A stretch of DNA of 64,000 bases from Peribolospora baueri (lineage: Eukaryota), in the NCBI GenBank assembly GCA_029717555.1, contig JAMDHS010000026.1, positions 124,001-188,000 of the forward strand, written 5' to 3'. The notes under the pieces were generated by a model. It did no database searches. It saw nothing but the letters and a program-made list of their open reading frames with translations, and was not told the DNA's origin. Below, piece after piece: positions 23,990-61,300 of this stretch. The position numbers were made by a program, and so were the translations under genes. Numbering within the stretch: the first letter of the stretch is position 1; every line of letters begins with the position of its first letter.

Positions 23990-25760
23990 GCCTATTCTAT
24001 TCGGTTCAGTTCAGTGAAATTAATATGTACATGCCAAGAAATATTGGGATCATAGAAAAGGGTGGCACCATTCCATGTTGGACGAAGATGCCGCGCTGAC
24101 TTTTCTCTTTCCAACTTCTGCACTGCCGCTGACGGAGTTCTTGCTTTATTCCAAAGCTCCCCAACCAGGCGAAGGTCCTGAGTCTTTGCAAGCTCGCTCA
24201 TCCTCTCCGCCAACCACTCCAACTCTTTCGCCTTCTCCGCCGGTGACGGCTGGTAACGACTGTCCCAGTTGACTCTGCTCCTCCTCCTTACCCTGCAGAT
24301 ATGGTAAGAATCACCCTTTAATGAGGGAATTGTTCCTAGACGTCAGGTCCAAACTCAAATGCAGGAACGGTTGTGATCCATGGCCTAGATACGCTTTGAA
24401 TGGAGGCAGGACAAGGTTCAGAGGTGAGTGCAATAATCCCAAGTGCAGAGACAAACTCAACCCCCCAGTGTTTCCTAGAATATGTTTCACAGCTTTACAG
24501 AGACAACACCAGTTCGTGGGACTTGTCCAACCTCCGCTCAGAACCTCGTGCTCATAGGCTCGGACAAAGGAGCTGTGACGTTGCGAGGTTAGAAATAGGA
24601 GCTACGGTGCTGCACCGATTCATGAACGTGTATATAAAGAGAGCCCGACAGGGCGTCCGCATCTTTCCTCCCCAAGCTAAGAATACTTTTGTCACTGCTC
24701 AGGTTTCCTCCAGAGTTCTCCGGCCAGCATCAGCACCTCTGTCCCAGCCTCCGCCCCATCCTCGTTCCTGTCCTCGTCCCTGTCCCCGACTTGCCTGCTC
24801 CTTGCTTTGTGTCGACTTCCGGTGGACCTCCATTCCGTCCTCCGTCTCTGCTCGTGATCCGACCTGAGTAGGGAAGTCCTCCCTGACACCACCTTTGGTT
24901 TCACAAGACCACCTCCTGCTAAGTCCATAGAGAGGATTCTGTTATCTCATCATTTTCAGACACAAGTCCCTCCTTAGGAGGTTTCATTCCACCAATCCAA
25001 CCCTTGAAAACTTGCACTCCACTCCGACCTGGTCTCTCTGGACCGTCACCCAGGATAAAGTCGACACTTCTTCTGAGGTTAGTGCAGCCTTCGACAGGGA
25101 CAGTGTTACCTTGGAAGTAGTCCAGAGAGACCAGGTCGGAGTGGAGTGCAAGTTTTCAAGGGATGGATTGGTGTCCAGGAATGAAACCTCCTCTTGTAAG
25201 GAGGGACTTGTGTCTGAAATTGATGAGATACAGAATCCTCTCTATCAGAAGCAACATAAGTTTCATACAGATTCCTAACCCTCCTTACCCTTCAGATCTG
25301 GTCAAGAATCACCCTCTAATGAGGGAATTGTTCCAAGATATCAGGTTCAAACTCAAATGCAAGAAGGGTTGTGAACCCTGGGCTAATACATCTTGAATGG
25401 AGGCAGGAGAAGGTTCAGAGGTATTTGCAACAATCCCAAGTGCAGAGACGGACTTCAACCCCCCAGCCTTTCTAGAATATGTATCACAGCTTTACAGGGA
25501 TAACACCATTTGGTGGGACTTGTCGACATTTGTTTGGTTCCACAAGACCACCTCCTAAGTCCCTTCCATCTTTTCCTCAACCTATGGACTGGAACCCCTA
25601 TGCTCCCGCTACTATCCTATCGAATACTATCACTGGCAAAAAACCTCAGCTCACAGTTAGGGCTTGGCGCTCCAATGTTGTTGCTCTAACACATAAGACG
25701 CTCCCAGAGCGCTCCTTATATACTCGTGAGGGGTCCAGCCCTCGAATCCGGAAGAGACAT
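23990..25760 (+). pseudogene. Degenerate insert (probable transposon relic) with two decayed copies of a Cys4 domain
   Basis: Visibly lower GC and CpG than the flanks. Internal direct repeat of about 250 bp (~24284-24527 vs ~25281-25524) with frameshifts in both copies. No transposase or RT motif and no terminal repeats recognised; boundaries approximate. Confidence 0.6.
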
Positions 25761-26076
25761 AGAGCGTAAGGGGTCGGGAACTGACGGAGTGAGGAATGCT
25801 CTAGGGTGGGAGGCGGACACAAGCGGAGATGACCGGACCAGTGGACTAGGATCCCACACGTGGCGTCACTTTTTCCAGGGGTGGGCTGCGTTTTGTGTAT
25901 AAGCATCCGATCATCGCGCTGATAGTAGCATAAGTGGTGCAGGCTGCAGCGCCGAGGGTACACCGTGCGCAAAGATACACGTGACCCGCCCATTATGGGA
26001 GGCCGCCCTGGCGCTCGTTATCAGCGACGTTGGACATCGACCGACCGACTTTCTTTCCTCCTCTCTCCACCTCGCC

Positions 26077-27957: not shown

Positions 27958-29993
27958 TTGACGACATATCTTCCCAATTTCGTTGTATTATCGTACATTT
28001 TTCCCCACTCAGTCACAAACAGCAACGGCTTGTACCATTGTCTCTGCAAACTGACGTCGCCAGCCAAGCGTTTGTCTGTCTTTCTCGAGCGCGGTCAGAG
28101 GGGAAGGTGGCAGTCGAAGGTGCTATTGACCCAGCGAAGGGAAGGACTTCCCGATTGTCGCATTTCGCACCCACCACGATGACACCTTTCATACATATAC
28201 ACACCCACTACACCAAACAATCTTCGTCCATATTCTCCCTGGGCGCTCATTTACACCTTTGTTCTACCACAAAGTAGGCAGCACCCCTGTCTTTCCCCCA
28301 TCCTTCCTCCCTCACCACGTCATCCTCTTCATTCCCTCGATTCAATTCGCCGCCCAGCTCGCATCCAACTTCCGGCATCCATGCCCCCGTCCGTCCACGT
28401 CCACCTTATTCATCCGAACCCGTTCTCTTCGAGTGTAGTAGTTGGCACTTCGCTCGAGCGCTCGCTCGCTGGTGCCACCCATAACATAACTTAACTGGAC
28501 GTTGCAGCGCGACTTGGCGGTCTGCACAAGACCGGCGCCGCGTCGTCATTGGCAGAAAGGAAACGTGGACGAGACGGGCGTTCGAGCGATGAAGCCCTGT
28601 GCGACGTTTTTCCATGCTTTTTGATCAGCCCTTCTACACCACGTGTGCTTAGCGGAGGGAGGGTAACTCGGTACTGACGGCGGTGAAGCTAGGTTAGCGC
28701 TCGCTCTTCCCAGGGAAGGCGAGACGAGGTAGGAGTTGGAGTGGAAGCGGCGCTCAGCAGTCGGCTGGCTCCTCCTCGGAGGTCATAAGAACCAAGGGAG
28801 AGGCCGGCCCGATGAGGCGCTGGTTTGTAGACAAGAAGAGCTGTGGGGTGGGCCCATCGACGACGAACGTGGGTGGATGTGCTCGTGACGAGAAAGGGAT
28901 GAGCGAGGTAGAGTCGTCGCTGACGGGAAGGGAACGTTCCAGAGCGAGCGACGTCGACCAGAATGAAGTTTCTTCTTCCGGCATAAACAAACACAGCTAG
29001 GCCAGCGAAATGGAAATGCTCGTTCGAACCGATTGGATTCCATTGGCGTTCCATCCCATTCTCCACCATATACTCGGTCTTGTCGACGACACTCCTTCCA
29101 CCCACTCCGCCTACCAATCCCTCACCCCGACCCATTCCTTCACAGAGAATAAACGAAGAACCGAAGACCGTCGGAAGACGAGGCGAGGCCGGGCCGGGCC
29201 GTCCTCGGGAGTCCTCAGGGTGACCGAATCGGCCGTGCGCGCATATGCTATGATACAACGAGACAGATGACGGATGAAGACGGCGAAAGCGGGGTTGGAT
29301 GAACAAGACGACGGACGGATGTATGTGGGTTAAGAGTGGAGCGGAGCGGAGATAAGGGGGAAGAATGACGAGGGGACCCGAGGGAGCTCCAAACGAAGCG
29401 ACGTCGCCATGATAGTAAGAGCGGGGCAAAACACGAGAGCGTGTCTGTCGCAACGACTGGCGGTGGTAATTGGAGGGAGCGATCGGAAAGGAGCGTGGGG
29501 GACAAGGAAGCCGCGCACGGGGACGAGCAGCTTGCCGGAAGAGCGGGTGATGCCGATGCGGACGTAGCTGAATGGGGAAGGAAAGGAAGGAGGGAAGACG
29601 ACGAAAGGGTGCGGGGCCGGTAGTCGAAGGGAGGTCGAGGGTCGACTGTGAGATGCGGACATTGATAAATGATGATTGGTTTGAGACGTGGACGAGACCG
29701 GTAAGGAAGACGGGTAAAGAGGACACGCGCGTCTGCGAACGGAAAGGCCGCGGGCGGCAAAGGCAAGGCGGATCGACGGCGGCGAGAGCGAAATGACGAC
29801 TGCGAGGCCTCAGACGATGATCTCTACTGAGACACCCCGACAACGTCCGATGCGGTGCTCCGCACCGTCTCTCCGCTCCCGCGCTCCACGAGCCACACTC
29901 TCCTTCCCCTCCCTCCCACCATCACTCGACCCGGCGAACGCGACCGAAGCCTCCGCAGCCGGATGACAGGCGCGCGAAACCCATCGTGAACTC

Positions 29994-30845
29994 TCAGAGG
30001 TCCATCTCGAACTGTTCGTCGGCATCGGCGGTCAACCGCCGATCATCTCCGCGGGGGGCGCCATTCGGACTGACGGGACCGGGGGCGGCGATACCGTTCT
30101 TGGTGGCGGCTGCACCCTTCTTGGCAGCGGCGTTGCCCTTCTCGATGACGTCGCCGAAGGGAGTGAGCAAGTCAACTCCGTTCTTCTTCGAGCCCATCTG
30201 ACCCTGAGCTGACGCCGCGGCGCTGGACTTGGAGATCTCGGGGAAGTTGGCGAGGCCCTTGGGAGGGGACTTGCTCATTGGGGACGAGGAGAGCGCCAGA
30301 AGCTGGGACCGAGAGTAGACAATCTTGGTACTGTGGGAGACGGAGAAGCAATGAATAAGGACGTGGTGCGCTTATCGTCAATGGAACGTGGACTTGACTC
30401 ACCCTCCAGGAGTGCTGTTCGGCGACGTCCACGAGCGAGCGATGGCAAAGCGAGAGAAGGCGTGCATGAGCGTGGGGAGGAATGCACAGCGCGGACGTGT
30501 CGATGCCTTCTAGACTGTCCGTCCAGAGATCTTTTTTCCTTCTTTCTTTTCTTCCTTCTGTCTTTTCTCTGTCTCGTATGACGATTCGTCCTCCTGGGCG
30601 CCCTCCTTGGCTGCACATGAAGTGCGTCGTTACGGTGACACTCGGGGCCAGGCATCCTCCATGCTCGCTCGTCGTCTGCGTCATCGTAACTTCCCCGGAG
30701 CCCCCTCTGTCTCTCTTTACACGCACCTGCCGTAAAAGTTGCCACCCGGGGTCTGGCTGAGGGTGGAGAGACCCCCGGCCGGACGATCGTCCGGACCAGC
30801 CTGGCGGATCGGGATGGCGGCGGCGGCGGGGGTGCTGTGGGACAT
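29994..30845 (-). CDS. eIF4E-binding protein (4E-BP family), 155 aa, 3 exons (30727-30845, 30403-30414, 29994-30330)
   Basis: Spliced product MSHSTPAAAAIPIR...SQTPGGNFYGSTPGGTKIVYSRSQLLALSSSPMSKSPPKGL...DEQFEMDL*. It has two TPGG sites, the YxxxxLL eIF4E-binding motif, an SP/SP pair and a C-terminal TOS-type FEMDL. Confidence 0.93.
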
Positions 30846-58371: not shown

Positions 58372-61300
58372 TCAAGGTCTCCGCACCTCGACTTTGCGGA
58401 TTAGGCCCTGCCCGAGCTTCTCCATATCCGCCAAAATGCTCTTCACAGTCATTTCTTCGCTACCCTGTTGCTTCGCCTTCTTTCCCTTGCTCGTGCCCTT
58501 CTCCTTCGGCTCCAGGAAGCTCGGGTTCCAGAGGCCCCCGATGACCGTGCCGCCGTGCTCGTCGTGGAAAAGCGCGAGTGCACTGGAGTATTTGCTCCGA
58601 ACGAGGTCCACGAATTCCGACGCCGGATCAAAGTCGAGGCGAATCTCTTCGCCATAAACCGAGTCAGATTGGCTCGCCAGCTTTCCCTTTCGACCTTGAC
58701 CTTTGACATCGCCCTCCCAGACGGCGGGATCCGGGGAAAGGTTTTGCACATAACGGGGAAGCACTGAAAGGAAAAGATGAATGACAAAATCGAATGCGTC
58801 TAAAGGGCTCGTGAAGAGCGACTGCGAATTGTGCGCGGCGAACGCGTTAAGCGACCGATCAGCGCAGTTCTCCTCCCGCTCGGTCCAGAAGCGTCCAAAC
58901 TCACCTGTACGTGTAGTTCTCCGCTCTCCACACCGTTGTCCATGGCCACGACGGTAGCCTTAGCGAGCTGAGATGTCCTGTTTGCGATCATGAAATTCGG
59001 GTCGAACGCCCACATCTGCCCCTCTGGATCATGCTCCGTCGCAACGAAGAAGGCCCGATGAGACAGGGCCGGATCGGAAGAACGGGAAAAGGAAAAGGCG
59101 CTCATGCTCCGTTGCCTTTCGGCAAGAGGGAAGAACACGCGGCTACCAATCGTCTCCGCACCGGCGGCGGAATAAAGTGGTACGAGGAGAGGCTCGTCCT
59201 TCCATCGCCAACTCGCCAGCAAGCGCATCGTTCGGGCGAAGCCTGCCGAACCGGTTGAAGGAGGCGGGCAGGCGCCCGGCTCCAAATACACGCTGGCGCA
59301 GATGAGCTCTATGAGTTCCGCAGGGACGTGTGAAGACAGAAGGTGGGCGGCGAGCCATCTTCGAACCAGCCGGACGGTCTGCGAGAGGGACGGGTGGCGG
59401 TGTTGCAAGGCAGCGATGGCTGCGTGATGTCGAGGGCGTTCCTCGAACCGTCGCTCGTACCGAGTCAGAACCGCTTGTGCCTCCTTCCGCTTGCCGGTGG
59501 TCGTCCCCTTCTTGTCAAGGATGATACGCTCCAGCAGTGTCCTTTCGCGGTCGTGATAGATGCGGGCGCGAAAGGCGAAACCGGCAGGGAGGATGATCTC
59601 CAACGCGCAAGCGTCTTGGATCGCGCTCCTATTGGCGTCGAGGTCGAGAGCTACGACCGCCAGCGACCCTTCCACCTTGTCCATTACCAACCGGGCCATT
59701 TTCTCAAAAAAGGCGGCCTTCATTTTCTGGATCATCTCAAGGTCGTCCGGCCAGTGGCCCGAACTCTCGAAAGTGAGGACAATGTCATGAGCCGGAGTGT
59801 ACTTGGCACAATCCGGCACGAGCGTCCCGAAAGCGTCAAAGTTCATGGCGGGGGGGACAAAGACGCTGGTGAATCGGAGGGCATCCGCCGCCGGAGCGAT
59901 ATTAACCAGGCCGAGCGGCAAATCCTCGCTGAGGGCCTTGAGCTGCCGAACGAGATAATCGTAGACGGTCATAACGGTGTGAAAGCCCTTTTCCTCAGGA
60001 TCTGCCAGGTACGCTCGACTCCGGATGGATTTAGGCACTTCAAGGAGCCCAGCAAATCCGCCAGAGAAGAAGGAAACGCGTTCACCGCGAATGGCGAAAT
60101 GATGGCCGAGGATGTGGCGGACGATGAGCTCCGGAACTCGAGTGCGGTCTGTCGGTCGGTCCACGTCCCATACGACGCTCTCGACGATCTTGCCATCCTT
60201 GAACCGACGTAATTCAGACTTTGGGCCCCATAGTTCCCGAAAGGAAGCGGCAGCGTCCTCGTCCTCTGGCGAAGGGCCATGGTCGACCAGACGGAAGGCC
60301 TGTTCGACGTCGAGATACGCCCCCAATGCGACGACAACCTCGTCTCCGCTGGACGCAGCAGAAGGTCTCGTTGCTGATGTTGACCATGGCGTCAAATAAT
60401 CGTCAGTCGAGGGCAGCAGCACTGAAGCGACTGTTGCCCGATTCCCGAGTGCTCTTCGCACTAAGCTCGAGACATTGAAGATGGTGTGCTGCGTCGATGA
60501 AGACCAGTCCACGCGAGAACCGTCATGCGCATCGCGCTTTGTACTTTGCGAAAACGAGACCCTGTGACATGAGAAAAAAGCGACGGCGGTTAGGATGAGC
60601 AAGCCGTTCGAAAAGTTCGAATGCCTGGCTCCACCCACCTAGCACTGATATCGAAATGCTCGTGACTCGCAGTCAAGTTCTGCAAGAACAGATCGGCAAA
60701 GTGATCGTTATCGTTATCATTCAAAAGCGCAAACGTTTGACGCGCTTCGTGCTGGAGGAGTTCGAACGAGCTGGGAGGAAAGCTGGCCGCGAGATTGACC
60801 GTGCCCGTTGGGTCAACAAAGACAACATCGAATGCGGATGTGAAATCCTCCCGCTGGATCTTCAAGATGGAGCCGGCGACAAAGAAAGAAAATCAGCAAT
60901 CGGCAAGAGTACAGGGGCAAGGGTGGAAGGCTCACTTGGAGTGTGTCGCCGATCATCTTCATGAACACGGGCTGTTCAGCAAAGTTGTGCTCCCCTGAAG
61001 AGCGCACAAGCCGCGGGACGCGAGTAAGATCTGCATCAAGAATGAGACTCGGTCCTGAATTCGTAAGACTTACCAAGGTAATCCATCACTCCCCGGAAAA
61101 GCTGATAGCTACTGAAACCGTTGGCCAGCTTCGGTCGTGATGCGCCCTTGCCAGGTCCCCCGTCCTCGCCCACGAGCAGGTGAGCTAGTACCATGATCAA
61201 GAAGAATCTCGCTCCTTGCATACCGAACACTGTTCGTCTATGTTTTTCGTTCGCGGCAAGGCCGGAACCGAAACCGCGTTGGAACGCCCAGACTTTGAGG

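Follow-up and report, generated by a model that had tools for sequence, protein, structure and literature searches.

A 12-nt micro-exon carrying the second TPGG site of a fungal 4E-BP gene is probably included constitutively

Can an exon of only 12 nt work as a switch for translation? The question is raised by a small gene on the minus strand of the window, the whole stretch of 64,000 nucleotides that we have analyzed. The initial annotation proposed that this gene codes for a 4E-BP, that a TPGG phosphosite of the protein is found on a 12-nt micro-exon, and that skipping of this exon could give a repressor which is desensitised to TOR. Animal-type 4E-BPs are usually discussed as metazoan. We consider here whether the gene and its micro-exon are what they appear to be, and whether skipping is a likely use of the exon.

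Read from the window sequence, the gene has three exons, all in the minus strand, from the ATG at 30845, which is the first ATG downstream of an in-frame stop, to the TGA stop at 29994-29992. Coding exon 1 (30727..30845), placed by alignment to Jaminaea, Parajaminaea and animal homologues, encodes MSHSTPAAAAIPIRQAGPDDRPAGGLSTLSQTPGGNFYG plus two bases, AG, that begin a Ser codon. Its last bases are AAC TTT TAC GGC AG, up to 30727, followed by gtgcgt. The first TPGG, equivalent to T37, lies within this exon (30752..30741), and the alignment also places in it an IPxR stretch resembling the N-terminal RAIP region. Intron 1 (30415..30726) has 312 nt and runs from GTGCGT to AACAG. The micro-exon CACTCCTGGAGG (30403..30414) completes the Ser, encodes Thr-Pro-Gly and provides the first two bases of a second Gly; its minus-strand context is gccgaacag / CACTCCTGGAGG / gtgagtcaag, the exon being read from 30414 to 30403. 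Intron 2 (30331..30402) has 72 nt, from GTGAGT to CCACAG, with a pyrimidine-rich 3' end. Both introns are phase 2. Coding exon 3 (29992..30330) starts as T ACC AAG ATT at 30330, preceded by tctcccacag, and contains the final base of the split Gly codon, followed by 111 codons and the TGA. In its translation, the stretch TKIVYSRSQLLAL includes the canonical eIF4E-binding motif YxxxxLL (YSRSQLL, 30317..30297), and the terminal DEQFEMDL includes the TOS motif FEMDL (30009..29995).

We joined these pieces by script. With the 12-nt exon (119+12+339 nt) the product has 155 aa, one terminal stop, and TPGG at residues 32 and 41. If the exon is left out, the product has 151 aa and the same stop, its sole TPGG being that at residue 32. 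The junction reads NFYGS/TKIVY in the 151-aa form and NFYGSTPGGTKIVY in the 155-aa form. The frame is kept on skipping because 12 nt is divisible by three, so the phase of the introns is not a separate observation. The lengths of the two introns, 312 and 72 nt, are also divisible by three, yet each intron has in-frame stops. Retention of either intron leads to a stop at codon 42 or 44 (codon 42 for intron 1, as given by the script). Retention cannot therefore yield a longer protein, and a protein from an intron-retaining transcript is ruled out by these stops.

Exon 3 alone is enough to identify the family. It matches the Pfam family PF05456 (eIF_4EBP) with 37.6 bits (cut-off 24, E 2.2e-09), exon-3 residues 1-49 falling on profile positions 47-82. 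The best solved-structure matches for this exon are human 4E-BP1 chains, whose T50-S86 align to exon-3 residues 1-37: residue 1 is aligned exactly to T50. In the same matches, QFEMDL of the window is aligned to human QFEMDI. The YSRSQLL motif corresponds to residues 49-55 of the spliced product and is aligned to human YDRKFLM. The spacing also agrees with that of five animal sequences, with 9 residues from TPGG to TPGG and 8 residues from the second TPGG to the Y of YxxxxLL. The second TPGG site is in place only when the 12-nt exon is included. The RAIP motif of 4E-BPs, as generally defined, is not found literally in the N-terminal region: the window has AAIPIRQ, relatives have VPIRR, AIRR and IPIK, and animal contigs have IPSRR.

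Judged by its sequence, this gene is a canonical (animal-type) 4E-BP of an Ustilaginomycotina-like basidiomycete. The initial annotation is borne out in all of its structural claims: the gene is a 4E-BP, by the Pfam score and the human 4E-BP1 alignment; the TPGG of the micro-exon is the equivalent of the T46 site, by the 9- and 8-residue spacing; the exon is flanked by AACAG and GTGAGT on the minus strand, as the sequence at 30414..30403 confirms; and both introns are phase 2, so that, in the joined sequences, skipping is in frame and gives GNFYGSTKIVY, minus exactly TPGG. YxxxxLL and TOS would also survive skipping, as had been claimed, since both motifs sit in exon 3.

A TPGG string of this kind might be present in an intron as a relic or as a coincidence, the gene being misread or a pseudogene and the micro-exon not used at all. 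We have found no annotated protein from this genome in the protein collections, which would agree with such a reading. Against it, the pattern AG-N-ACN-CCN-GGN-GG-GT has one match in both strands of the 64-kb window, at the micro-exon itself, and none in 100 dinucleotide-preserving shuffles. The order, phase and spacing of the string are also correct for its place between two exons which both match relatives, the frame is open to the conserved C-terminal FEMDL, and the splice signals are intact on all four sides. We find this reading scarcely credible. The interval from the exon-1 donor to the exon-3 acceptor contains 77 AG..GT pieces with lengths of 3-60 nt; 27 are divisible by three and 25 are stop-free. 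The only candidate with a GTRNGT donor and a STPGGT product is CACTCCTGGAGG. We also considered another in-frame piece within this 396-nt interval, and rejected it: the 24 other stop-free pieces have neither a GTRNGT donor nor homology. The micro-exon string is more than chance. As the spliced model indicates, the 12-nt exon is real, and it is the sole source of the second TPGG.

Relatives of the gene are few in the protein collections. An exhaustive HMMER search gave only three matches at E values up to 0.001, and none of the 16 candidates from a word-indexed protein search with exon 3 was significant. A follow-up search with the Parajaminaea protein (P0004) gave four matches, three of which are ORF calls covering only exon 3. 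The named relatives are Jaminaea rosea PWN29421.1, an "unnamed protein product" of Parajaminaea phylloscopi and Testicularia cyperi PWY99023.1, all of them Ustilaginomycotina; they score 56-79 bits on PF05456, all above the cut-off. The eight loci from a metagenome scan are all arthropod-like 4E-BPs, without a fungal one among them; in six, which are spliced (cDNA-like), the two TPGG sites are contiguous. In the prokaryote genome scan, none of the 30 pattern matches was related.

We aligned nine full-length sequences: the window model, three fungal sequences and five arthropod-like ones from cDNA-like contigs. The second TPGG is present in all nine (window model included), and the first in eight, the Testicularia model being the exception. 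The second TPGG is found 8 residues before the Y in eight of the nine sequences, and 9 residues before it in Testicularia. Scored with a profile built from the eight homologues, the included form reaches 108.9 bits, compared with 86.8 for the skipped form, a difference of 22 bits. Since it has both this alignment layout and the higher profile score, the predicted included form is the canonical protein. The corresponding stretch of Jaminaea is STLSQTPGGMNFYGSTPGGTKLMYSREQLL, to be compared with STLSQTPGGNFYGSTPGGTKIVYSRSQLL in the spliced product of the window.

Two sequences in these sets deserve a comment. The Testicularia cyperi protein (P0003) has only the TPGG equivalent to T46; where the first would be, a run rich in Ser, SSSSSSSGGGVYG, is found. 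Either this smut lineage has truly lost the first priming site, or the gene model is in error. An arthropod-like spliced contig (L003, positions 153-467) codes for a 4E-BP with a divergent 5' part, MVDSVGINVTYSGLGFACRSPDLG/TRIVYERNF. Both TPGG sites and the IPSRR region are absent from it, and YxxxxLM and FEMDL are present. It is not a simple case of intron retention, because the bases before the junction are not AG; an alternative first exon could account for this 5' part, as could a chimeric assembly.

We now turn to the splice signals, which bear on whether a real micro-exon would be skipped. As a yardstick we have used the general fungal splice consensus. By this measure, which may not be that of the host, no weak or ambiguous splice sites were found around the micro-exon. 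Its donor is AGG/GTGAGT, and its acceptor, AACAG/C, is the first AG after an AG-free zone of 92 nt. Neither intron contains a further GTRNGT. A strict CTRAY branch point is absent from both introns, where only looser YTNAY sequences are found. In intron 2 there are 76% pyrimidines before the acceptor, with the branch-point-like CTTAT and TTCAT at -26 and -22. The last 200 nt of intron 1 contain a single branch-point-like site, CTCAT at -53, downstream of which the AG-free zone begins. The signals of intron 1 are less ideal than those of intron 2: a GTGCGT donor is weaker than a GTGAGT one, and the distance from branch-point-like site to acceptor is 53 nt. The lack of strict CTRAY sites also leaves some room for skipping. 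An intron of 312 nt, which is long for a fungus, with a GTGCGT donor and a distant branch site, could result in a weaker upstream 3' splice site and some skipping. The middle of this intron (about 30530-30568, minus strand) has an AG-rich tract with imperfect 16-nt and 4-nt repeats and no Rfam match. In fact, no Rfam family matched anywhere in the window, so there is no known RNA within the long intron 1, and a tRNA scan found none.

Skipping might be regulated. The exon would be omitted when TORC1 is low (starvation, TOR inhibition) or at a developmental cue, and the resulting 151-aa form is predicted to bind eIF4E and raptor and to be unable to fold away, so that reactivated TOR could not fully release it. 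The less ideal donor and branch-point-like site of intron 1 agree with this proposal, as does the fact that skipping is in frame and deletes exactly TPGG. When T37 and T46 of 4E-BP2 are phosphorylated, the protein adopts a four-stranded fold in which the eIF4E-binding helix is partly sequestered. This switch has the TPGGT hairpins as its structural core, and both hairpins contribute to the phospho-induced fold (PMC7305185). By analogy, loss of one hairpin plausibly weakens release from eIF4E. The earlier suggestion that the skipped form would be TOR-desensitised is thus reasonable as far as the 4E-BP2 phospho-fold described in PMC7305185 goes, that is, as an argument from mammals. The arthropod-like contig with neither TPGG suggests that nature may make such forms, but it is a single contig and possibly a chimera.

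Other observations argue against regulated skipping. All the full-length sequences, four fungal (window model included) and five animal, carry the second TPGG. No skipped form appears in the protein collections, which hold very few relatives. The micro-exon has a consensus donor and an unambiguous acceptor, and the downstream intron is short (72 nt). Under the intron definition proposed for fungi (PMC3925392), skipping is not favoured, because the exon-1 donor must span 396 nt to the branch point of intron 2 with a perfect donor about 45 nt away from the latter.

The frequency of skipping in fungi points in the same direction. It accounts for 3% of alternative events across 23 fungi (PMC3925392) and for 0.5% of splice events in Coprinopsis long reads (PMC12230235). 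Ustilago maydis, a related smut fungus, does skip exons, in 12 of 193 events (PMC2219887), which may be counted in favour of the proposal; on the whole, these sources put skipping at 0.5-6% of events. Intron definition has been proposed for fungi, so that failed recognition leads to retention rather than to skipping (PMC3925392), and retention here gives a premature stop at codon 42 or 44. The length of the exon is no stronger an argument. Internal exons of 15 nt or less are found in 1,165 Coprinopsis gene models, about 9%, and their omission causes a premature stop in 835 of these models (PMC12230235), which by subtraction leaves about 28% without one. A length that keeps the frame is expected by chance in about one case in three or four, and that of our micro-exon is not special. 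For these reasons, we consider regulated skipping very improbable.

A less demanding alternative is that the exon is normally included, and that skipping or intron retention affects a small, unregulated fraction of transcripts, without a dedicated function. Many fungal genes have low-level alternative events when coverage is deep (PMC2219887, PMC3925392), and an exon of 12 nt puts an acceptor and the next donor very close to each other, which may make errors likelier. Such noise differs from constitutive inclusion only in degree. We think it unlikely to be the better description of this gene, although it has more to be said for it than a regulated switch.

We regard it as probable, and as the best explanation, that this is an ordinary canonical 4E-BP gene whose micro-exon is constitutively included. 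Inclusion is favoured because homology (TPGG in 9 of 9 sequences, a gain of 22 bits) is combined with strong splice signals. The mature mRNA would consist of exon 1, the 12-nt exon and exon 3, coding for the 155-aa protein, and essentially all productive transcripts would be expected to include the micro-exon. By analogy with mammals, the unphosphorylated protein would block the binding of eIF4G to eIF4E; TORC1 would dock via FEMDL and phosphorylate the threonines of both TPGG sites, upon which the protein would fold and eIF4E would be freed. The micro-exon itself results from the presence of two introns only 12 nt apart, intron 1 being the additional one.

The position of intron 2 can be followed in other species. 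Some ORF calls on unannotated contigs of relatives read through the intron before exon 3. Of these, P0008, which shares a 90% cluster with the Jaminaea rosea protein, has STLS/TKLMY; P0005 and P0009 have DTNS/TRLVY, and reading through in the window gives SVSHS/TKIVY. Since a Ser directly before the Thr corresponds to AG plus a pyrimidine at a read-through phase-2 acceptor, place and phase would be kept. These protein strings suggest that the place and phase of intron 2 are common to at least two other fungal lineages. In animals, a genomic arthropod-like contig (L008) has the acceptor tttcag/GA ACT AGA, where the same Gly codon is interrupted one base earlier and the phase is 1. The first CDS of Drosophila Thor holds both repeats and ends with TPGG, and its second CDS begins with T (PMC13386439). 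The animal intron is thus found within 1-2 nt of the intron 2 site. That fungi and animals have an intron at nearly the same site after TPGG may point to an ancient opisthokont intron; the shared site may be due either to common descent or to parallel gain. Intron 1 is a different case: by the account in PMC13386439, it has no counterpart in Thor. The 392 nt that precede the acceptor of L008 contain no TPGG-coding piece. An N-terminal alignment search for short exon-1 ORFs in relatives had 98 candidates, none of which scored.

Other features of the window may be mentioned briefly. A long open frame in the minus strand (58800-60638) contains Nrap domains 3, 4 and 5 (nucleolar RNA-associated protein). 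For the seven other long frames tested there was either no match or a weak one (RING finger, Kelch). The region 24001-26000 has a GC content of 0.51, compared with 0.54-0.66 elsewhere in the window.

The value of this gene lies chiefly in annotation and evolution: it is a warning on tiny exons and adds one observation on intron conservation. An exon of 12 nt is enough to conceal a key phosphosite, and ORF-based or weak gene callers may drop such an exon and lose or garble the N-terminal half of the protein. The five stored ORF calls (P0005-P0009) are an example, all of them without the TPGG region: P0005, P0008 and P0009 run into the intron, while P0006 and P0007 begin at a Met inside exon 3. 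This is how, for want of spliced models, a small gene of this kind loses its N-terminal half. Basidiomycete 4E-BPs have been named automatically in public databases. Our literature search, supplements aside, found no paper describing a canonical 4E-BP in a basidiomycete and no description of a 4E-BP micro-exon. In a term search of PMC2997006, PMC11791286, PMC5745459, PMC3388326, PMC11836306 and PMC11447835, any mention of 4E-BP is mammalian, general or limited to the reference list. The full set of TOR-responsive motifs is present in an Ustilaginomycotina-like fungus, which places animal-type 4E-BPs in fungi outside Saccharomycotina. If regulated skipping did occur, it would mean a splice-encoded memory or brake on cap-dependent translation, a rare case of functional exon skipping in fungi, and the first natural 4E-BP isoform without one of the priming sites. 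Speculatively, skipping might also offer a simple genetic handle on TOR-independent translational repression.

A comparison with known systems places this gene among the animal-type 4E-BPs. Metazoan 4E-BP1/2/3 and Thor belong to the same family, with the same order and spacing of TPGG, TPGG, YxxxxL-hydrophobic and C-terminal FEMD[LI], and with an intron directly after the second TPGG, as in the window gene. The window protein differs from them in being fungal and in having a longer disordered C-terminal half. Compared with L008 and Thor, the second TPGG is found on its own 12-nt exon because of an additional upstream intron; the phase of the following intron is 2 in the window and 1 in L008. 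Among fungi, the three annotated Ustilaginomycotina 4E-BPs have 36-44% identity to the window exon 3 over the alignment, and the Jaminaea stretch STLSQTPGGMNFYGSTPGGTKLMY is nearly the same as that of the window, while the Testicularia cyperi model has a single TPGG where the window has two. Non-phosphorylatable 4E-BP1 mutants (T37A/T46A and the like) serve as dominant translation repressors in mammalian cells. Like the hypothetical skipped form, they are without a priming threonine and keep the eIF4E-binding and TOS motifs; however, they are engineered point changes, whereas the skipped form would have a four-residue deletion and a shorter linker to YxxxxLL. The repressors Caf20 (p20) and Eap1 of Saccharomyces are also fungal eIF4E-binding proteins with a YxxxxL-hydrophobic motif, like the window protein. 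Nevertheless, they are found only in Saccharomycotina and are not homologous to metazoan 4E-BPs (PMC7139794); by its sequence matches, the window protein is a true homologue of the metazoan family. Finally, the micro-exons of 15 nt or less in Coprinopsis cinerea are very short internal exons with ordinary short introns, constitutive and easy for annotation to miss (PMC12230235). The window micro-exon resembles them, but unlike them it coincides exactly with a known regulatory phosphosite.
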